Shown: positions 2,924-52,122 of the stretch, piece by piece
Layout of the letters: each line of letters starts with the position of its first letter
Numbering within the stretch: the stretch's first letter is position 1
DNA from: Escherichia phage vb_EcoM_bov11CS3
Direction: 5' to 3' (one strand)
Length of the DNA: 64,000 bases
Sequence record: MT884009.2
Translations under genes and position numbers: made by a program
Notes under the pieces: model-generated
The model's input: the letters and a program-made list of their open reading frames with translations, nothing else
Databases searched by the model: none
What the model was told of the DNA's origin: nothing

Positions 2924-4108
2924 TTAAGCTTTAGCTAAAATGGCGCTAAACTCTTCACCAAACTCTTTTACAATCTTCATCAGGTTTGGGTACGCTTTGA
3001 TCAGTTGAGCAACGATCTTGTCACGCCCTTTACCGATAAGCAAGGCATTTCCTAAGGCATTAGGTTTCATCATCGCCATAAAGACTGAGAATACAAAATC
3101 TCGGTTCTCGTCCTTGAAGTTTTCCCAAAGGAAATCGAGGAAGTTTGCCACGCAGCTGACAAGATCTTCATCTGAGATACTTGCATTTTCCATCATATTA
3201 CGAATAGCGATACAACCTTCAGATCCAAGAATCCACAAGATGTCTGGCTGCTTAGGACCTACGTATTCTTTGCAACCCCCTGCCATAATCCGACCGATTT
3301 CCGGTAAATTGCGTTTCTTGGTGTGGTAGGTCCAGATCTCTACCGCTGCAGTGTGACCAATAGCACCTTGCAGAAGAACACGGGCCATAGCGTCAGAAAT
3401 AATACCGCTGTCAAAATCGTGCAGGATATCAGATGCAGCAACCCAAGATCGCGGTGTGGCAAAAGATGGGCAATTAATCTCAGCCATAGCCTCATAATTA
3501 TCAATAGCTGACGGAACTCTTTTCAGATACCCAATTACAGAGGAGTGCACTCCATTAAGGAATGCGTAGTCCTCAATAAACACCTCTGCATTGCTTGTAA
3601 CTTCTACAATGATAAAACGGTTAGCCAGAGGGGCTTCAAGCGCCGAAAGAACCGCACCATCTGTAGAACGGTTACCTGCAGCTACAAAAACAGAGCCCTT
3701 AGGGAATGCATAGGTGCCGCACTTGTGGTCGAGCATAATTTGCATTGCAACCTTTTGCAGGTAATTATCTGCATGAGTAAGCTCATCCAGAAAGATAATT
3801 CCGCTCCAGTCCGGATCTGCAGGCCAGAATTCTGGAATTGCAAACACTGTACGTGTAGTTCCATCCGCTTCTACAGGGATAGGTAGCCCAGATAAGTCGG
3901 CAGGATCTTTATCTGACAGTCGCACGTCAACCAGGTTGTCATCTCGCTCACCGAACATATTATCGGCGATCTGCTTCATCACCTGGCTCTTCCCCACGCC
4001 CATTGGTCCTAAAATCAGGACAGATCGGTTATGACGTTGGGCAAACTGAATGATAGCTGGCAACTCACGGACAGTGATTTGACCACTTTCAAATACGTTT
4101 CTTGACAT
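2924..4108 (-). CDS. MoxR-like AAA+ ATPase (AAA_5/CbbQ-type), 394 aa
   Basis: Walker A ILGPMGVGKS, Walker B IIFLDELTHAD, downstream AAGNRSTDG...LANRF segment typical of MoxR-type ATPases. Confidence 0.7.
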   Translation of the reverse strand: MSRNVFESGQITVRELPAIIQFAQRHNRSVLILGPMGVGKSQVMKQIADNMFGERDDNLVDVRLSDKDPADLSGLPIPVEADGTTRTVFAIPEFWPADPDWSGIIFLDELTHADNYLQKVAMQIMLDHKCGTYAFPKGSVFVAAGNRSTDGAVLSALEAPLANRFIIVEVTSNAEVFIEDYAFLNGVHSSVIGYLKRVPSAIDNYEAMAEINCPSFATPRSWVAASDILHDFDSGIISDAMARVLLQGAIGHTAAVEIWTYHTKKRNLPEIGRIMAGGCKEYVGPKQPDILWILGSEGCIAIRNMMENASISDEDLVSCVANFLDFLWENFKDENRDFVFSVFMAMMKPNALGNALLIGKGRDKIVAQLIKAYPNLMKIVKEFGEEFSAILAKA

Positions 4109-13743: not shown

Positions 13744-13778
13744 AAAAAGAAAGGGGCCAAACGGCCCCTTTTTATTTT
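13744..13778. terminator. bidirectional Rho-independent terminator between convergent blocks
   Basis: AAAAAGAAA-GGGGCCAAACGGCCCC-TTTTTATTTT: GC stem with A-tract on one side and T-tract on the other. Confidence 0.6.
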
Positions 13779-19463: not shown

Positions 19464-21209
19464 TTAACGTTGTGCAATTACTACGTCTACGATATCACCA
19501 ACACCACAATATGTTAATTGCAGCAAGGTAACACTATTAGCCTTGTTATTAATAACAGGCGTTGCCGACAGGATAGCATACTTATCGTGCAAAGTCACGT
19601 TGTGACCTACAGCATCCTGAATGACATAGATAACCGCAGTGAATGGATAAGGTTTATCTTCCGCTGATGTACCAGGCCATTGTCCTATTGTAAAATCCCC
19701 TTTCGCGTGGACAACATACATACTGGCCTGCCCGTTAGGTGTCCATGTCCCACTGGACGCGTCAACCTCCTCTAAATCAAAATCTACCTTTCCTGCGTGG
19801 AAAGTAGGGGCAGTAATGGTTTTACCCGCCTCAATTTCTTGAGAGGTGGTTATCTTGCCACTGGAGTTAATGCCATTACAAACAAAGTTGACATTAGAGA
19901 AGTCTGGCAGCCACCCAGTCACTGTGCCGGATATTTCAAGGTTGTGAAGGTAGGTGGTGCCCGTCCCTGCTGCGTTTAAACTAACATCTCCATTTACCTG
20001 CAAGTTTCTGGTAACGTTGCAGTTTTCAGAGTTTGCAGTTGTTGCAGTTAAAGTAGTGGTTGTCAGCTCGGTAATTACACCTTTGTTGGCTGTAAGCCCT
20101 TCCCCTTCAAAAGTTGCACGCTCATTGACTCTTAGGGTATTCAGAGCTATGTTTTGGATAGAGGCTGTACCTCGAATAACTACAGATCCGCCAACTTCTA
20201 AATCACCATTTATTAATGCGTCCCCCGTGCTTTCAATATAGCTAGGGTAAATCATGGTGCCATCGACAGAGTAGGTTATCCCTGTAACAGTGCCTGTCAC
20301 CTCAAGGTTCTTAACCTTGGTGGTTCCATCTACCTGCAATGTCGGTTCGGTTGCTGCCTTCATGGCATTACCACGAATGTACACGTAGTCAAAAAAGTTA
20401 TTACCTAGACCATCAAAATGCACATCGTTATTATTAGCCACTGGTTTCCCAGAAGTTATAGTGTCAGCTATAACCCTGTGGGTGGACACTTCATGAGGTT
20501 GCAGCTCTGTGCTTCTCCAGTCTGCATGCTTAGGATCACTCCACGCAAAAGTAAGTGTAGAAGTATTTGCCGTGAGGATTAGGTTCCTGAAGCGTGCAGT
20601 AGAATCTGCTCCATTAACAGGCCCATGTAAGGTGAGTGTGCCACCAACTATAGTGTTAGCAAGTTCTGTAAGACCTTTTACCACCAAAGACCCTACAGTA
20701 ACTTTCATTCCCTCCATGGCTTCAAATATGCTATCCACATAGTCAACAACAAACTCTGTGTTTGCTATAGACTCGGATTTGTCGTCCATTGGAGGCGTAG
20801 GTACTCGCGGGTCACCTTCGAACCTCGGACTGTTAAGTTTTGCGTAGTATTTTGCCATTACTGCAGAATCGGTATATAATCTCCAGTTTGGAGATTGTGA
20901 AGGATCTGCTGGCATTCTAACCGGGTTAGATTTTGATGCTGCGGGAGCGTACCACCACTGAGGGCCTGTGTCCCCTTTAAACTCGTACAGCTGGTTAAAA
21001 ACTGTTGTGGATGCACCATACGCCCAAGGGATCGGTGGCGTTTTAAAATAAAGGGTGTCAAGCATGGCTTTTCGTACCGTAGGGATGGTGGTCCCATCCT
21101 CTACGACAACTTCATCCACAGCGTTACCGTTGACAATCAGGTGCAAACGTTCAGAATCAACAATTACTTGATCTACCGCCTGCTCAAAGCTTGTCATGTC
21201 TTGCGCCAT
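19464..21209 (-). CDS. tail fibre protein, 581 aa
   Basis: Position in fibre cluster; Thr/Gly/Asn-rich repetitive beta-type sequence. Confidence 0.55.
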   Translation of the reverse strand: MAQDMTSFEQAVDQVIVDSERLHLIVNGNAVDEVVVEDGTTIPTVRKAMLDTLYFKTPPIPWAYGASTTVFNQLYEFKGDTGPQWWYAPAASKSNPVRMPADPSQSPNWRLYTDSAVMAKYYAKLNSPRFEGDPRVPTPPMDDKSESIANTEFVVDYVDSIFEAMEGMKVTVGSLVVKGLTELANTIVGGTLTLHGPVNGADSTARFRNLILTANTSTLTFAWSDPKHADWRSTELQPHEVSTHRVIADTITSGKPVANNNDVHFDGLGNNFFDYVYIRGNAMKAATEPTLQVDGTTKVKNLEVTGTVTGITYSVDGTMIYPSYIESTGDALINGDLEVGGSVVIRGTASIQNIALNTLRVNERATFEGEGLTANKGVITELTTTTLTATTANSENCNVTRNLQVNGDVSLNAAGTGTTYLHNLEISGTVTGWLPDFSNVNFVCNGINSSGKITTSQEIEAGKTITAPTFHAGKVDFDLEEVDASSGTWTPNGQASMYVVHAKGDFTIGQWPGTSAEDKPYPFTAVIYVIQDAVGHNVTLHDKYAILSATPVINNKANSVTLLQLTYCGVGDIVDVVIAQR

Positions 21210-21218
21210 GATTTCTCC

Positions 21219-21485
21219 TTAAGCTTTTTGCTCTTCGTTTTTAACGTGGTCAGGGTGCTGGCAACCCCACCGGAGCGAGATGAATTTGCTAATAAGCTGG
21301 GGGCAAGCTACTGAAGGCGCGTATATCCACGCATACCATTCAGGAAGCGTATCATTATACCCCATATGAATAAACACCCCAGTCATCACCGCCATGCCTA
21401 TGTTCGACCATAGCTTAGATTGGGACACTTTCGTAGGGTCATCAGATGCCGCAACCAGTCCCCATAAAAACTGAGTTAGTTTCAT
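21219..21485 (-). CDS. small membrane protein, 88 aa (holin-like)
   Basis: Two or three hydrophobic segments (LTQFLWGLVAAS, IGMAVMTGVFIHMG, WYAWIYAPSVA) and a charged C-terminus. Confidence 0.35.
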   Translation of the reverse strand: MKLTQFLWGLVAASDDPTKVSQSKLWSNIGMAVMTGVFIHMGYNDTLPEWYAWIYAPSVACPQLISKFISLRWGCQHPDHVKNEEQKA

Positions 21486-21496
21486 TTACCCTCTTT

Positions 21497-22543
21497 TTAA
21501 GCATAAGATATAGTGATCCATTGACCATTTACAAGTTTTTGGATAGCACCTGTCCAGTAATCACCTTGATAAGGGTGTTTATAAGCGTAGTTACCAGAGC
21601 ACATCACATGTCCAGGGTAGACTCTTGACTCTCTGTAGGTGGTTTTAAAACGGTTTGCTATCCTTACATCATCAACCCCTCTGCTAGGCATAGGGATAGT
21701 AAGGTTACCGCTACTGTCTGCGCCGTTACCATTTACCCTGCGGACCACGTTTCTTCCACCAACTGTTGCATATTGGCCCCTGACGGTTTCATCGTTACAA
21801 TCAACTCTTCCACCTATTTGAGCGCTTCCGCAGGATTGTTGTCCATTAACAGTGGCTCTTGGTATAGTAACTGCATTGGCATTTGCAGAGGAACTTTTTG
21901 CATCGTTGCATTCAAGATTTCCTTGGATAGCCAGTCTTGCACGGTTGGCAGTTATAGCATTGAGCTTCATAGCCGAAAACACAGGCTGCCCACCAGAAGG
22001 CTGAAATCTCCAACGGAACCCGTCTATTTGGTGAGAAGGATCATCAAGGTCTGTGCCGTCAGCACCACCGATGTTGTCCATAATCCAGAAATCCATAGTC
22101 GTCTTGTCTGGCGTTATGGTGGTATATATTGCCGCACTGTCTGTTGACGCAGATGCAAACTCGATTCTTTGGAGACCTAAAGTTTGAGTCTGAGTCATTA
22201 TGTCTCCAGACTTGTCAACATATAGATCGTCCATTTCTTCAGGTGAGTATACATTGAGAACTTGACGTGCAGCAGCTTTGTCTGGAACGTCTGCTAGATT
22301 ATTAGTGACCCTTAAGAATCTATTATCCCATCCTGGGACAACATCTTCTGTTAAATGCTTTAACCACGCAGAAAGCATGTGAAGTTCAAAGTTAACAACT
22401 TCACATGCCATTCTTTGTGTCATATCCCAACCTTTCAATCTCTCTTCTTTTTTTGGTTGAGACTTATTCAACTCTCCCGTATTTTCAAGCACAACATCCT
22501 GATTGGCCCAAATATCAAGAGGGATAACTGGTTTAGTCATCAC
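21497..22543 (-). CDS. tail fibre protein, 348 aa (paralogue of 23555-24595)
   Basis: Shares PL(E/D)IWA, LNAITANRA, GNRNVVRSVNG and C-terminal QKLVNGQWIT with the 346-aa fibre. Confidence 0.6.
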   Translation of the reverse strand: MMTKPVIPLDIWANQDVVLENTGELNKSQPKKEERLKGWDMTQRMACEVVNFELHMLSAWLKHLTEDVVPGWDNRFLRVTNNLADVPDKAAARQVLNVYSPEEMDDLYVDKSGDIMTQTQTLGLQRIEFASASTDSAAIYTTITPDKTTMDFWIMDNIGGADGTDLDDPSHQIDGFRWRFQPSGGQPVFSAMKLNAITANRARLAIQGNLECNDAKSSSANANAVTIPRATVNGQQSCGSAQIGGRVDCNDETVRGQYATVGGRNVVRRVNGNGADSSGNLTIPMPSRGVDDVRIANRFKTTYRESRVYPGHVMCSGNYAYKHPYQGDYWTGAIQKLVNGQWITISYA

Positions 22544-22583
22544 GTTCTCCTGAGAAAATTCCTTAGGACTATTTTAACACTTT

Positions 22584-22619
22584 AGAGAACAAAATGCAAG
22601 AACGGAGTCCTTTCCGTTC
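22584..22619 (-). terminator. Rho-independent terminator-like hairpin
   Basis: GAACGG-AGTCCTTT-CCGTTC stem, followed on the minus strand by TTGCATTTTGTTCTC. Confidence 0.4.
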
Positions 22620-22629
22620 TGACCTTTGT

Positions 22630-22944
22630 TTACCTTTTACTATGCTCTACGAGCATGTGCAAAATCTTTTGTACATCAGCTCGGATGCCGGAGACATCTG
22701 TCCTGACATCCTGCTTAAGGTCGTTAATATCGGCCTCTAGCTTGCTTAACCGGGTCTCGATAACGGAATCAAGTCTATCTTTTGTAACCATACTGTTTTT
22801 CACTAAGATGAGGTCTTTCTCCAGCTCATCTAACCTCTTGGAAATGCCTTTCCATTTGGTGTGCCACTGGTTGAAAGCCCATACACAGATCGGGACAACG
22901 GTACCCATGCAGATACCGTATAATGCCGCCAAATCCAACTCCAC
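22630..22944 (-). CDS. membrane-anchored coiled-coil protein, 104 aa
   Basis: N-terminal hydrophobic segment LAALYGICMGTVVPICVWAF followed by charged heptad-like sequence. Confidence 0.4.
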   Translation of the reverse strand: MELDLAALYGICMGTVVPICVWAFNQWHTKWKGISKRLDELEKDLILVKNSMVTKDRLDSVIETRLSKLEADINDLKQDVRTDVSGIRADVQKILHMLVEHSKR

Positions 22945-22955
22945 AACACCTCCTC

Positions 22956-23540
22956 TTAGAGGGTAGGTCGCTCCGGGAAGAAAATGTCAGGGGCTTTAGA
23001 TGTATCTATTTCAAGAAGTTTTACCCTGTACATTTTCAAATCTCTGATGTTACGTTTCTGGTCATCAGTAAGATCATATTCAAGGTCAATCATGTCTTGA
23101 TAGGCACCAATTCTAGCAGTAGCCCAAGCAAGTTCTGTCTCTATGACACCCTCTGCCTGTTGAACAAAGAATTCATTGTCTGTGACAAATTCATCACCAA
23201 CTAAACGCAAAGCGTCGTGGTGAAGCATAATGTTTTCTGGTACCTCTTCTTTTTTGGCGATAACCACACGAAGACCTGGAGCAGGCCATAAGGCATCAGG
23301 TTCTTCTGTAGATGTCTTAAGAATTCCCTTTTCGTCAACAAGTAGGAAGATACAACCCGGATTTTCTTGTCGTAATGTTCGTGACTGCACATACCAATCG
23401 CCATCATCATTACGTAAAAAATACCCAGTGTATGCGGTGTAATCCTCAACCTCTTGAGGGGTCAGCTCTTTGGTTTCCTTGTTGGCGTGGTATTCGCCAG
23501 ATCCCGGCTGGTAAAGTTTAAACTCTTGAAGTATTTTCAT
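22956..23540 (-). CDS. tfa: tail fibre assembly protein (lambda Tfa-like), 194 aa
   Basis: C-terminal YRVKLLEIDTSKAPDIFFPERP matches the remembered lambda Tfa C-terminus (YRVLLNRVDTSTAPDIEWP); lies directly downstream of a fibre gene. Confidence 0.7.
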   Translation of the reverse strand: MKILQEFKLYQPGSGEYHANKETKELTPQEVEDYTAYTGYFLRNDDGDWYVQSRTLRQENPGCIFLLVDEKGILKTSTEEPDALWPAPGLRVVIAKKEEVPENIMLHHDALRLVGDEFVTDNEFFVQQAEGVIETELAWATARIGAYQDMIDLEYDLTDDQKRNIRDLKMYRVKLLEIDTSKAPDIFFPERPTL

Positions 23541-23554
23541 GCTAGTCCTCCGAT

Positions 23555-24595
23555 CTATGCATAATTAACAGTGATCCATTGACCGTTTACAAGTTTTTGT
23601 AAAGGTCCTGCCCAGTAAGTTGAACCACGCATCTCTTTTTTGTCACCGAAATGCCAGCCTGTGACAACGTAGCCGTTGCGGATTGGAGATTCAGAAACGC
23701 CGTCCACAAGTCTTGCACCGATTCTGATGTCTTGCACACCTGTCTGCGGGATAGTGATCGTTACATCACCGTTACCGTTAGCCGTCACTCCGTTCACAGA
23801 GCGAACCACATTTCTGTTACCGACAACACAGTGCTGGCTTCTTACAACCATACTGTCACAACTTGCACCACCATTAACATATACTGACCCAGCAGTCAAT
23901 TGACTAGCCACATTACAGTTGGTGAATGTTGCGGTATTGCTGATAGTAAGGTTATTACACCTCATGTTATCGACAACTTCAACATTGCCTACCACTTTCA
24001 ACAGCGCACGGTTAGCTGTGATCGCGTTAAGGTACATCAAAGTGAACTCTGGATTAATATCCGGCTGAGTTGGCTGGAATCTCCAACGAAACGCATCTAT
24101 TGTAGATGTGCCACCATCATCAAACGACCCAAAATTATCACTTAACCCAAAGTCGAGAGTTGTCTTATCTGGGCCAATAGTTGTCTCTATCCAAGCCTTA
24201 TCTGTCTCGGCAGCTTTAAAGTTGATACGTTGCAAACCCAATGGGCCTGTCATTGTATCACCTGTAACTTTTACATACCTGGCGTCTGCCTCTTCCTTGG
24301 TAATAATCCCAAGGTTTCTACGGGCAACAGGAATGTTCAAAAGATCACTCAAGTTATTATCACGTACCAGATAACGGCCTTCTTGAGCGGGGATCTGCTC
24401 GTCAGCAATGTATTTTGCCCAAGTTCCGAGCATATTGAAAATATAGTTAAGTTCTTCACATGAGGGCTTTTGACCAAGATCCCAACCTTTTCTCCACAAA
24501 TCATCAATCGGGCGTAGCCTGTTCTGTCTGTGGGTGTTAGGCAGAACCTGATCCTCCTCTGCCCAAATCTCTAATGGAAAACTAGGTTTTGACAT
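23555..24595 (-). CDS. tail fibre protein, 346 aa
   Basis: Paralogue of 21497-22543; followed by the Tfa-like gene. Confidence 0.6.
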   Translation of the reverse strand: MSKPSFPLEIWAEEDQVLPNTHRQNRLRPIDDLWRKGWDLGQKPSCEELNYIFNMLGTWAKYIADEQIPAQEGRYLVRDNNLSDLLNIPVARRNLGIITKEEADARYVKVTGDTMTGPLGLQRINFKAAETDKAWIETTIGPDKTTLDFGLSDNFGSFDDGGTSTIDAFRWRFQPTQPDINPEFTLMYLNAITANRALLKVVGNVEVVDNMRCNNLTISNTATFTNCNVASQLTAGSVYVNGGASCDSMVVRSQHCVVGNRNVVRSVNGVTANGNGDVTITIPQTGVQDIRIGARLVDGVSESPIRNGYVVTGWHFGDKKEMRGSTYWAGPLQKLVNGQWITVNYA

Positions 24596-24607
24596 TTTAT
24601 CTCCTGA

Positions 24608-26680
24608 TTATGAGAAGTCTGGCGGGACAACATCTTCTACATACCCTTTCAGAGCAACCTGCCCCATATGAAGCACGGTAGAATCTCTAGCGGTAACAGT
24701 GATGCTGTCAGACATTACTTGCGGGTATGCCCACACATACTGTTTTACCTCAGGGTATCTATACTCTATAGTTGCCATGTTTCCGCAAATACATCTCCAT
24801 AAAAATTCTTGGTAATTCCTAGTTGGGTCGTAGCCATATACCGGAGCAAGCTCTTTACTAGGAACGAACCCTGCAAGGTATTGTATTTCAGACGGTTGCC
24901 AACCTAACTTAACGATAGGTATGTTTACAGACTCTTTTGCCTTTTCAATACCTCCCTGCATCACCCAATCGTAGCACTCGGTGCAGAAGAAATCAAGAGC
25001 ACCTGCTTCCTTTTTATATTGGTCAGCAAGGTTCAGCTTTTGTGTAAGCTCAGTTTCCATAATGGTTGGGAAAAACAACAAAGCTGTCATCTGAGCTGAT
25101 GCAGCGTGTGCCTTTATTGCCTTTGAAATAGCCGCAATACGAGCGCCAAGCTTACCACGACAAAATGCTACATACTTGTCGTAAACACCGCCAGTTTTAG
25201 GATCGTCAATAGTCCCAATATCTAATGCATACTCACCTGTCTCATCATAAAACGCCTGTTTTGTAGGGTAATCATAAATACAAGGTCTACGAGTATCGGT
25301 ATTGTACCACCACCACGGTTCACCAACCTGCATAATCACTGGCAGGTTGTTTCTCATAGCGGCTGATGCAAAATTCTTAAATACTGCAGTAAGGAAATTC
25401 ATACCCTCTTCAATGGTTGGAGACAGGAGGTAGCTACAAGGTGTATACCCTGTTTTAGCGTAATTATCGTTCCAGTCTCTTTGGGTCCATTCCAACGGGC
25501 AGGCATCGCTGAAAAGCTCAAAACTTACAGATTGCATAACGTCGAAGTTATGTCGTTTGGCATTGTACATAAAATCATCATGCCATTTATAAGCTGCAGC
25601 GTTTAGCGCTCCTGTTCTGTTTATAGACCATTGAGTTCCTGACCATGTGTAGTCATAATAATGACTCATACCAACATAATGGTTTATGGTTCCGGTATAG
25701 CCCAGACGCTTGATATTGTTCAACACCCTTAAAGGAGATACGTTCCACATATCGTCATATGCGGTGCAGATCCCAACGTCGTGCTCTCTCACCTGAATAT
25801 TGTTAAGTTGCATCATTTTCCAGCCTGTGTCTGGCTGAAGCAGATCTAGGCGCAACTCACACTCTACGTTTTCCGTTCTCGGGTCTGTGCTGTTACTTAC
25901 CCAGTCTTTAGGCATAAGCGGTATTAAAATCCTTCTCACCTGCCGAGGATCAACACCCATCATGCTGTTGTTCTGGTCCATCCCGACGCAGTCCTCAAAA
26001 TCAATATGAATTTCTGCAACATTCTTATCCTCTGAGATGCTGACAGCATATTGAGCTAAAGGAACATAGATGATTGTGCCATCAACAAGGTCTACAGTCA
26101 TAATCATCTTTTCAGGAGTGGAGAAGTTGCTGGCGTTGGTTATTGACATTCTGAACCAAAGCTTGGTATTTCTCATCTCATAATGATCATCAAACCCAAT
26201 ACCGAAATGATCATACTTGTCAACTGTTTCCCAAATGCACCCGGCCATACCTCCATATGTTCTTGACACTAAACGGTTAATACAACAGTTATTATCTGCA
26301 ACAATACAGGTACTTTCAGTCTGCTGAGTAGTTGTAACCCAATATCTTGGGTGGAACATTCTCTCCTCAACAGTATCCCAAGATATCCTGTCAAGATTCT
26401 CATCTGAAACTATTGTACATTTCGCCCTTTGTGTTCCAATCATCACCCCTTGGGATTTTGATGAAAACTCCATAAAGAAGCTTCTTGGCAACCTATTGGG
26501 TAATTTGTCAACAATTTCCACCGGGATCTCAATACTGGTTGCCCCAATTGGGATAGTTACATCGCCCTCAACATGATTATAATCCCTACCAGGAACGGCA
26601 GTATCCTGAACTGTTCGGTAATGAAACTGTGCAGCCATTGTAGAGTAATCACGGTAAGGTTTAAAAACAGCTGTTGCCAT
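24608..26680 (-). CDS. tail fibre/tailspike-like protein, 690 aa
   Basis: Size and position between baseplate genes and fibre genes; no catalytic motif identified. Confidence 0.45.
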   Translation of the reverse strand: MATAVFKPYRDYSTMAAQFHYRTVQDTAVPGRDYNHVEGDVTIPIGATSIEIPVEIVDKLPNRLPRSFFMEFSSKSQGVMIGTQRAKCTIVSDENLDRISWDTVEERMFHPRYWVTTTQQTESTCIVADNNCCINRLVSRTYGGMAGCIWETVDKYDHFGIGFDDHYEMRNTKLWFRMSITNASNFSTPEKMIMTVDLVDGTIIYVPLAQYAVSISEDKNVAEIHIDFEDCVGMDQNNSMMGVDPRQVRRILIPLMPKDWVSNSTDPRTENVECELRLDLLQPDTGWKMMQLNNIQVREHDVGICTAYDDMWNVSPLRVLNNIKRLGYTGTINHYVGMSHYYDYTWSGTQWSINRTGALNAAAYKWHDDFMYNAKRHNFDVMQSVSFELFSDACPLEWTQRDWNDNYAKTGYTPCSYLLSPTIEEGMNFLTAVFKNFASAAMRNNLPVIMQVGEPWWWYNTDTRRPCIYDYPTKQAFYDETGEYALDIGTIDDPKTGGVYDKYVAFCRGKLGARIAAISKAIKAHAASAQMTALLFFPTIMETELTQKLNLADQYKKEAGALDFFCTECYDWVMQGGIEKAKESVNIPIVKLGWQPSEIQYLAGFVPSKELAPVYGYDPTRNYQEFLWRCICGNMATIEYRYPEVKQYVWAYPQVMSDSITVTARDSTVLHMGQVALKGYVEDVVPPDFS

Positions 26681-28868: not shown

Positions 28869-28901
28869 GTCACTCCTCCGGTATGAAAATCTCTACAAGG
28901 T

Positions 28902-28930
28902 ATTTTACCAAATTTTGTAACAATAGTCAA
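28902..28930 (-). promoter_or_regulatory. sigma70-like promoter inside the structural module
   Basis: Minus-strand TTGACT (rc 28925-28930), 17-nt spacer, TAAAAT (rc 28902-28907). Confidence 0.4.
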
Positions 28931-34381: not shown

Positions 34382-34412
34382 TGTGCCTCCGGGTTAAACA
34401 ATCATGATAGTT

Positions 34413-34441
34413 ATTTTACCAGATTTTGAGTTAATACGCAA
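34413..34441 (-). promoter_or_regulatory. possible sigma70-like promoter
   Basis: Minus-strand TTGCGT, 17-nt spacer, TAAAAT; weak -35. Confidence 0.3.
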
Positions 34442-48523: not shown

Positions 48524-48566
48524 TTTATAGCATCCTTATTAGTCATGTTGTGCACCATATTTGTGT

Positions 48567-48595
48567 ATTTTACCATGATTATGGTGCATTGTCAA
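48567..48595 (-). promoter_or_regulatory. sigma70-like promoter overlapped by an inverted repeat
   Basis: Minus-strand TTGACA (rc 48590-48595), 17-nt spacer, TAAAAT (rc 48567-48572); TGCACCAT (48551-48558) and ATGGTGCA (48581-48588) form an 8-bp inverted repeat across the promoter. Confidence 0.45.
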
Positions 48596-52081: not shown

Positions 52082-52122
52082 TAATGTATTTTACCACAAA
52101 GATACATCAAAAGCAACAATTT

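Follow-up and report, generated by a model that had tools for sequence, protein, structure and literature searches.

We analysed a 64,000-nucleotide stretch of the genome of Escherichia phage vb_EcoM_bov11CS3 (record MT884009.2; the whole stretch is called the window below) and found that two small genes lying among its tail fibre genes, within positions 21,219 to 24,595, may encode lysis proteins. In this reading, whose chances we put at about even, an 88-amino-acid (aa) protein is the holin of the phage and a 104-aa protein is its membrane-tethered partner. Lysis is favoured because it is the only function that would explain both kinds of context in which relatives of these proteins occur, lysis cassettes and tail modules; because the phage needs an essential holin other than the annotated one; and because T4 and T7 show that a holin gene behind fibre genes is normal. 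The initial annotation of this DNA had offered lysis, superinfection exclusion or help with fibre assembly as functions of the two proteins, and lysis is the best supported of the three, given the relatives in holin slots and the finding that both genes are essential in the related phage Bas54, whereas the annotated holin gene is not. The gene content of the locus is not new, because it was published in 2013 and 2021; the history of the cassette and the lysis reading of the small proteins are new relative to those two papers (PMC3606486 and PMC8594841).

The 88-aa protein belongs to the family phrog_1322. A homologue search with either small protein yielded close relatives alone. An exhaustive profile search for the 88-aa family returned 67 representative clusters, all of them phrog_1322, with a common layout of the motif SHTK(F/L)WSN, a first helix, an acidic loop, a second helix (IYLGVVA..SK.LS.KYG) and a charged tail; some members have a third, N-terminal transmembrane (TM) segment. 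In at least five unrelated lysis cassettes, a member of this family occupies the holin slot beside endolysin or spanin genes. The Mu-like Pseudomonas phage Bise (locus L008 of our set) encodes Mor, a Peptidase_M15_4 endolysin, the phrog_1322 member, whose start overlaps the endolysin stop, and an i-spanin with an embedded, proline-rich o-spanin that carries a lipobox; after the spanins come a 92-aa TM and coiled-coil protein (phrog_462, E = 4e-24), a homologue of Mu gp26 (phrog_436) and terS. A Mu-like prophage of Mannheimia/Pasteurella (L019/20) has Amidase_2, DUF2644, i-spanin, o-spanin, phrog_462, gp26-like and terS genes in that order. Among metagenomic contigs, we found M15_3, a phrog_1322 member and an i-spanin with embedded o-spanin (L023/24), M15_4 followed by a phrog_1322 member (L025), and a phrog_1322 member followed by a C-terminally anchored coiled-coil protein, an i-spanin and an o-spanin (L026). 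Sister prophages (L016-18) carry GTA_holin_3TM in the slot after their M15 endolysin. Outside the big myoviruses, the common denominator of the 88-aa family is the holin slot of lysis cassettes.

Distant phrog_1322 members (P0041, P0036 and P0046, with P0040 more weakly) carry precomputed matches to PF10841 (DUF2644), and hhalign comparison of the phrog_1322 family with a bona fide DUF2644 protein gave 50%. DUF2644 was not mentioned in the literature that we searched. In Stenotrophomonas phage Moby and Acidovorax phage ACP17 (L009 and L010), both of which have T4-like replication modules, the phrog_1322 member is a lone gene on the opposite strand, with the DNA polymerase gene on one side and the dUTPase gene on the other; the ACP17 homologue has three TM segments, and the Moby homologue has its own terminator.

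The need for a holin follows from the type of endolysin. The endolysin of rV5-type phages is a close homologue of lambda R, with no N-terminal hydrophobic segment and no signal-arrest-release (SAR) domain, and because it is soluble and lambda-R-like, the phage needs a holin. Its gene lies about 50 kb from the locus, and the spanin genes lie beside terL (bas54_0001/0002, which are rV5 gp67/66). We compared the locus with a published transposon-insertion map (HIDEN-SEQ) of the Vequintavirus Bas54 (MaxBurger), in which insertions are counted as TA sites hit (bioRxiv 10.1101/2025.11.20.689424). The Bas54 proteins are nearly identical to those of the window (identical residues: 104-aa protein 103/104, 88-aa protein 87/88, fibre 1 343/346, fibre 2 345/347 and tail fibre assembly chaperone (Tfa) 193/194). 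In this map, the gene annotated as 'putative holin' (bas54_0115) was hit at 27 of its 28 TA sites and is non-essential. Essential genes include those for the endolysin (0/24), the i-spanin (0/29) and the o-spanin (0/19), and the T4 t gene and the Bas37 holin gene received no insertions by the same method. Both small genes of the locus are likewise essential (88-aa gene 0/19, 104-aa gene 1/20), as are fibre 1 (3/61), Tfa (2/35), fibre 2 (1/57) and the gene for a neighbouring 581-aa protein (1/123), whereas the genes for two large fibres of 1875 aa (281/336) and 1279 aa (180/221) are not. The annotated holin (L029 36920-37291, outside the window) is a 123-aa protein with a Kyte-Doolittle (KD) value of 3.13. 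Earlier papers on rV5-like phages left gp29, the rV5 counterpart of the 88-aa protein, unannotated and proposed gp129 as the holin (PMC3606486 and PMC8594841); the first of these found no holin homologue.

Bas54 has 15 essential genes without annotation (0010, 0012-0014, 0017, 0018, 0021, 0037, 0039, 0087, 0101, 0110, 0184, 0195 and 0220), of which only 0037, 0039 and 0110 look like small membrane proteins. Genes 0037 and 0039 are the two small genes of the locus. The products of 0010 and 0017 reach KD values of about 1.5, but their genes have head and tail genes as neighbours. Polarity of insertions in Bas54 seems weak: 0074 and 0198 tolerate them although the ends of these genes extend over the starts of the essential genes 0075 and 0197, and so do 0192, 0185 and 0203, which immediately precede essential genes.

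The initial annotation had called membrane proteins inside a receptor-binding cluster unusual. In T7, however, the holin gene 17.5 directly follows fibre gene 17; in T4, the holin gene t directly follows gene 38; and over 200 phages from several genera keep the two small proteins studied here in the same place. The likeness to T7 17.5 and T4 t is that of a small late inner-membrane protein encoded at the end of the fibre genes and far from the endolysin gene. It does not extend to a sequence relationship, and T4 T is a 218-aa protein with a single TM segment. An apparent common 'EW(F/Y)' motif made the 88-aa protein a candidate relative of the T7 holin gp17.5; we rejected this, as the hhalign probability was 0.7%.

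Class II holins, for example S68 of phage 21, have two TM helices with both termini in the cytoplasm (N-in/C-in). The 88-aa protein resembles them in its small size, two helices, short acidic loop and charged tail, and in having relatives that adjoin endolysin and spanin genes; it differs in that its helices are weakly hydrophobic, its tail is not basic and it lacks a dual-start motif. Its AlphaFold 2 (AF2) model, built from a 37-sequence alignment, has helices at residues 22-43 and 49-73 and a predicted local distance difference test (pLDDT) score of 80.5. We propose that it is a holin of the class II type. The term 'holin-like' that it had been given is borne out by family context, namely the holin slot of lysis cassettes, and not by its own hydropathy. 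Foldseek searches of the AF2 models of the 88-aa and 104-aa proteins against BFVD returned only uncharacterised family members and non-significant 'holin' matches, helical hairpins being not discriminating in this comparison.

Near its N terminus, the 104-aa protein is strongly hydrophobic (residues 3-24, KD 1.9). Its AF2 model (pLDDT 87.5) consists of helices 5-50 and 55-103. An acidic four-residue N-terminal tail (MELD) is followed by the TM segment (residues 5-24) and a basic flank, NQWHTKWKGISKR, and because this charge distribution predicts an N-out/C-in topology, the coiled coil of about 80 aa is expected to be cytoplasmic. We rejected the 104-aa protein as an i-spanin, since its C terminus is predicted to be cytoplasmic, no open reading frame (ORF) with a lipobox lies nearby and the spanins are encoded elsewhere.

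In architecture, the 104-aa protein resembles the Mu releasin gp25 (DUF2730), a 99-aa protein with four periplasmic residues and a 73-aa cytoplasmic domain (Chamblee 2022, PMC9239132): it has about four outside residues, one N-terminal TM segment, a predicted N-out/C-in topology and a helical cytoplasmic domain. Its remote relatives in phrog_462 also take the gp25 position, upstream of gp26 homologues; the Mu order of lys, spanin, gp24, gp25, gp26 and terS matches that of Bise, with phrog_462 in place of gp25. The link between the 104-aa family and the phrog_462 alignment (hhalign probability 81%, E = 1.2e-5, 77 columns including the TM segment) is a single hhalign result between low-diversity coiled-coil profiles; pairwise BLASTP of the 104-aa protein with the 92-aa Bise protein was not significant, so the signal appears in the profile-profile comparison only. 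We rejected homology of the 104-aa family with Mu gp25/DUF2730 for want of profile support, the two being alike in architecture and cassette position only: no DUF2730 (PF10805) match was found for the 104-aa protein at E <= 0.1. A releasin is expected to lie within five genes downstream of a SAR endolysin, whereas the rV5-type endolysin is soluble and distant, and because it is soluble and without a SAR domain, the published releasin mechanism cannot apply as described. We propose that the 104-aa protein is a putative holin partner or regulator with a releasin-like architecture.

The PHROGs families phrog_462 and phrog_15210 are labelled 'lipoprotein'. Members at L005:8969-9304, L006:9006-9341 and L008:5734-6012 have an N-terminal TM segment and a coiled coil with no lipobox cysteine, and the label is unsupported because members are without a lipobox.

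If the 88-aa protein is the real holin, it would be made late, together with the tail genes, insert into the inner membrane as an N-in/C-in helical hairpin and permeabilise that membrane at a set time, allowing the soluble lambda-R-like endolysin to reach the wall. The 104-aa protein, with one TM helix and a cytoplasmic coiled coil, would act as a regulator or co-factor of the holin, mirroring the architecture and position of the Mu gp25 releasin.

All five ORFs listed in the initial annotation were found where it had placed them, on the minus strand and within the late structural operon, and its gene calls (two paralogous fibres, a Tfa chaperone and a membrane-anchored coiled-coil protein) were correct. 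In rV5 numbering the locus comprises gp33, gp32, gp31, gp30 and gp29, with gp34 (690 aa) and gp28 (581 aa) on either side. The features are as follows.

24608-26680, minus strand: context, upstream; baseplate-attached glycosidase/deacetylase fibre protein, rV5 gp34, 690 aa (Pfam)
23555-24595, minus strand: short tail fibre 1, rV5 gp33, 346 aa, of the Mu gpS/phiTE short tail fibre (STF) type (phrog_4465, E = 2e-171)
22956-23540, minus strand: tail fibre assembly chaperone (Tfa), rV5 gp32, 194 aa (Pfam PF02413, Caudo_TAP)
22630-22944, minus strand: 104-aa protein, rV5 gp31, N-terminal TM anchor and coiled coil (phrog_5345)
22599-22620, minus strand: hairpin, possible partial terminator (folding and shuffles)
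22570-22579, minus strand: late-promoter motif TGTTAAAATA, rV5 'P030', extended -10 type (rV5 Table S4)
21497-22540, minus strand: short tail fibre 2, rV5 gp30, 347 aa from the ATG at 22540 or 348 aa from the GTG at 22543 (phrog_4465, E = 2e-166)
21219-21485, minus strand: 88-aa protein, rV5 gp29, two-helix and weakly hydrophobic (phrog_1322, E = 2.7e-32)
19464-21209, minus strand: context, downstream, starting 9 nt after the 88-aa gene; lateral fibre protein, rV5 gp28, 581 aa (phrog_4549)

Comparison across genera suggests how the two small genes came to be separated. In four relatives, Klebsiella phage KpS8, Pectobacterium phage phiTE, Acinetobacter phage ABPH49 and Aeromonas phage phiA009, the order is wedge, baseplate protein, one short fibre, Tfa, phrog_5345, phrog_7451, phrog_1322 and the next fibre, where phrog_7451 is a multi-TM protein of about 150 aa between the 104-aa and 88-aa homologues. 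In phiA009 (L014, ~3460-3900), an ORF of this kind is present at the phrog_7451 position and is unannotated. Vequintavirus genomes lack the multi-TM gene and have the hairpin, promoter P030 and fibre 2 in its place. We infer that the two small genes are the remnant of an older three-gene membrane cassette (104-aa, ~150-aa multi-TM and 88-aa proteins), and that fibre 2, together with a hairpin and a late promoter of its own, took the place of the multi-TM gene in Vequintavirus. The initial annotation had paired fibre 1 with the 104-aa protein and fibre 2 with the 88-aa protein. This pairing is misleading: the relatives have a single cassette, inside which fibre 2 was placed, and because they show both small genes as the ends of one older cassette, neither gene is tied to one fibre.

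Several findings speak against a lysis function and keep a role in assembly in consideration. The 88-aa protein has weak hydropathy (best 19-residue window 1.05; 17-residue windows 1.27 and 0.95) and two prolines in its second helix, and TMHMM and Phobius, as run by the rV5 authors, gave gp29 no TM domain (PMC3606486). Its C-terminal tail of 16 aa is 31% charged with a net charge of -1, whereas the tails of classic holins are basic. It had no Pfam match even at E <= 10, DUF2644 (PF10841) included, and none in NCBIfam, and the 104-aa family had no detectable similarity to Mu gp25 (hhalign probability 1-3%, 1.1% in one run). No lysis gene adjoins the 88-aa gene in this genome. Across six genera or more, its family shows tight linkage to genes of the baseplate and fibres, and in Phapecoctavirus and Pseudomonas phage PsgM04F the 88-aa homologue lies directly upstream of a wedge gene, a position that would also fit morphogenesis. 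The same phages encode, after Tfa, a 111-aa TM and coiled-coil protein (phrog_15210) that also matches phrog_5345 (1e-4) and phrog_462 (6e-7). The essentiality of the 88-aa and 104-aa genes fits a holin and an assembly factor alike, and insertions in the 88-aa gene could still, in formal terms, be polar on the essential 581-aa gene 9 nt downstream. Finally, Bas54 offers an alternative holin candidate in bas54_0110 (L029 34643-34996, outside the window), an unannotated and essential gene (9/31) for a 117-aa protein with an N-terminal TM segment (KD 1.88).

Strict baseplate linkage and the low hydropathy of the 88-aa protein keep alive the explanation that the small proteins help to assemble or attach the short fibres or the baseplate periphery and stay outside the virion; with the multi-TM protein of relatives, they would be an inner-membrane platform or a set of chaperones. 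We regard this main rival as unlikely, though it deserves real weight. It would account for the strict synteny with chaperone, wedge and fibre genes in Vequintavirus, Seunavirus, Certrevirus, Mydovirus, Phapecoctavirus and Plateaulakevirus, and for both small genes being essential, as is every neighbouring structural gene. The 88-aa protein is 51% identical to its KpS8 homologue, compared with 57-60% for wedge proteins and 26% for Tfa, and is thus conserved like a baseplate protein; the predicted cytoplasmic coiled coil of the 104-aa protein could bind fibres; and both proteins, like Tfa, are absent from virions of phage CB7. If the proteins are assembly factors, membrane-bound helpers of fibre or baseplate assembly would be unusual in themselves, and we know of no fibre chaperone that is an integral membrane protein. 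What argues for lysis instead is that both families occur in the lysis cassettes of Mu-like prophages, by endolysin and spanin genes and far from fibre genes, and that, in Moby and ACP17, the 88-aa homologue stands alone among genes for replication. An assembly role would also leave bas54_0110 as the only essential holin candidate. A lysis function with the roles swapped or shared, in which the 104-aa protein or a protein of the bas54_0110 type is the true holin and the 88-aa protein an antiholin or accessory, seems improbable to us. The TM segment of the 104-aa protein is far stronger than that of the 88-aa protein (KD 1.91 against 1.05), its gene is essential, bas54_0110 combines a comparable anchor with essentiality, and coiled-coil membrane proteins accompany phrog_1322 members in most of the cassettes inspected. 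However, it is the 88-aa family that holds the slot directly after the endolysin, whereas phrog_462 is always found by gp26 and terS genes and occurs in the Mu-like prophage L021 with no adjacent endolysin.

Two further roles are unlikely, with very slim chances for each. The small proteins could be minor parts of the virion, within the fibre or baseplate complex, as would suit essential genes among structural genes, and proteins of this size are easily missed by mass spectrometry (MS) and in low-resolution fibre density. Yet the strong TM anchor of the 104-aa protein does not fit this role, and the available virion data, which the initial annotation had named as a check, do not include either protein. 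In the Certrevirus CB7, MS identified 26 virion proteins, among them CB7_31 and CB7_36, the fibre proteins that flank the cassette; the chaperone CB7_32 was stated as not detected, and CB7_33-CB7_35, which correspond by position to the cassette seen in the related phiTE, are absent from the virion table. No test peptide of either small protein that we searched for was present in the rV5 MS table of 19 proteins, and in the parts of the phi92 and phiTE cryo-electron microscopy papers that we consulted, proteins of the 88-aa and 104-aa type were unnamed among the modelled components. Superinfection exclusion or receptor masking, in the manner of Cor, Llp, Imm or Sp, has the very smallest probability. 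It could be read from the adjoining receptor-binding proteins, from the PHROGs category of phrog_1322 ('moron, auxiliary metabolic gene and host takeover') and from the lone opposite-strand homologue near the DNA polymerase gene in Moby and ACP17. It is contradicted by the essentiality of both genes for plaques on K-12, expression from the late structural operon and the lack of a signal peptide or lipobox; moreover, the genes are kept across phages with different receptors, such as the flagellotropic phiTE and the lipopolysaccharide (LPS)-dependent rV5.

A wider form of the lysis reading, which we hold tentatively and at somewhat less than even chances from comparison of gene contexts and profiles, is that phrog_1322/DUF2644-like proteins may be a widespread holin family and the N-out/C-in tethered coiled coils of phrog_5345, phrog_15210 and phrog_462 their dedicated partner. 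The pair would have travelled together between the lysis cassettes of Mu-like phages and the baseplate modules of large myoviruses of the phi92/rV5/PVP-SE1 type, and would be the real essential holin system of rV5-like phages, with the gene that has carried the holin annotation for more than ten years irrelevant to lysis. Phages of this group are among the commonest coliphage isolates, with uses against O157 and as ingredients of therapy cocktails. Were the 88-aa and 104-aa proteins the lysis timer of rV5-like phages, two of the 15 essential 'dark matter' genes of the group would be named, DUF2644 and a family now labelled 'lipoprotein' would gain a function, and the releasin-like class of tethered cytoplasmic lysis factors would reach beyond phages of the Mu type. 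The duplication of fibre 2 would then also have displaced a membrane gene and not brought one of its own.

The fibre and chaperone part of the locus is secure and ordinary. Kropinski 2013 (PMC3606486) reported the fibres as 42.3% identical, with HHpred similarity to T4 gp12, recognised gp32 as Tfa, listed gp31 as a 'membrane protein, 1 TMD' and left gp29 without annotation; Maffei 2021 (PMC8594841) described two short tail fibre paralogues and a chaperone homologous to Mu gpS and gpU. In our comparison, BLASTP put the identity of fibres 1 and 2 at 43% (E = 6e-95) and a global alignment put it at 45.7%. The initial annotation had described divergent central regions. In the pairwise alignment the divergence is not simply central and falls into three separate blocks (residues ~50-100, 200-250 and 290-320), with residues 110-200, 250-270 and the last ~20 conserved. 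Fibre 1 matches the phiTE short tail fibre (PDB 9cuy) over residues 1-108 (E = 1.4e-19) and the Mu fibre protein S (PDB 5yvq) over residues 286-343 (E = 8e-7). Fibre 2 matches 9cuy over residues 2-84 (E = 1.1e-9); it has no direct match to Mu gpS 5yvq, and its last ~20 residues are common with fibre 1. The phiTE cryo-electron microscopy paper describes the short tail fibre as docking on wedge protein 1, and the phi92 'fiber III' gp147 is described as Mu-like. The two fibres are thus of the Mu-gpS/phiTE type, with a common N-terminal wedge-docking domain and a common end of ~20 residues, and one Caudo_TAP chaperone is encoded between them.

The chaperone scores 45.8 bits against PF02413 over residues 121-192, above the gathering threshold of 22.1, and also matches phrog_136 (E = 2e-36). 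It sits downstream of fibre 1 only, between the fibres, and probably folds both. Fibres of Mu (gpS/gpU), phiTE and phi92 likewise have a homologous N-terminal wedge-binding domain, a C-terminal tip and a Caudo_TAP chaperone encoded downstream; Vequintavirus differs from Mu in having two tandem essential paralogues that share one chaperone and no invertible segment. Because each fibre is separately essential in Bas54, both appear to be needed. This suggests that both are required on one particle and argues against simple redundancy for two LPS chemotypes. The two fibres are non-redundant in Bas54 despite homologous wedge-docking N termini and C-terminal ends, with six wedge sites to share. In the rV5 MS data, gp30 and gp33 are among the detected proteins according to the text of the paper (PMC3606486); one peptide common to both fibre C termini was not found in rV5 Table S5.

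For fibre 2, the ATG at 22540, which is the start annotated in rV5, is a likelier start than the GTG at 22543, since it suits the AGGAG Shine-Dalgarno sequence better. We found no relative of fibre 2 with more than 40% identity outside Vequintavirus, so that it is a paralogue restricted to this genus. The single fibre of KpS8 is 48% identical to fibre 1 and 39% to fibre 2, which is the more diverged of the two.

The terminator hairpin that the initial annotation had placed upstream of fibre 2, at 22584-22619, is real, with coordinates slightly off: we found it at 22620-22599 on the minus strand, with an 8-bp stem, a 6-nt loop and an imperfect, interrupted U-tract after it. Its 61-nt context folds with -19.2 kcal/mol (z = -3.3; 0 of 200 shuffles fold as well). 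It is absent from the rV5 authors' list of 20 terminators (PMC3606486) and is possibly a partial terminator. In the two further rV5-like genomes that we aligned, the intergenic region shows 100% identity to that of the window, which leaves no covariation to score. The motif TGTTAAAATA at 22570-22579, overlooked in the initial annotation, is the putative late promoter P030 of rV5 Table S4 (PMC3606486). With one mismatch allowed, the late-promoter motif TGGTAAAATA has 19 sites in the window against 6.2 expected, and 17 of these are on the minus strand; further sites of this type include 28901-28910, 34412-34421, 48566-48575 and 52087-52096. A strong bidirectional terminator hairpin at 13748-13773, where the convergent late operon meets a plus-strand block, corresponds to the published t026/t027 of rV5.

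Upstream of the locus, the 690-aa protein (24608-26680) matches Pfam PF23845 (4e-80) and PF23844, non-contractile tail sheath TIM-barrel domains, as well as Calx-beta; its orthologue in Bas54 is essential, unlike the largest fibre genes. Over 4 kb around the locus, the window has 100% identity to Escherichia phage vb_EcoM_bov22_2, and 113 further phage records match the locus at 90-99.8% identity (99 of them at 95-99% and 7 at 90-95%). These records are from rV5-like myoviruses of the genus Vequintavirus, except for 16 GenBank records labelled 'Campylobacter phage' (MG0656xx, host C. jejuni). The latter are 98-99% identical to window positions 21000-25000 and are probably mislabelled or contaminant genomes.

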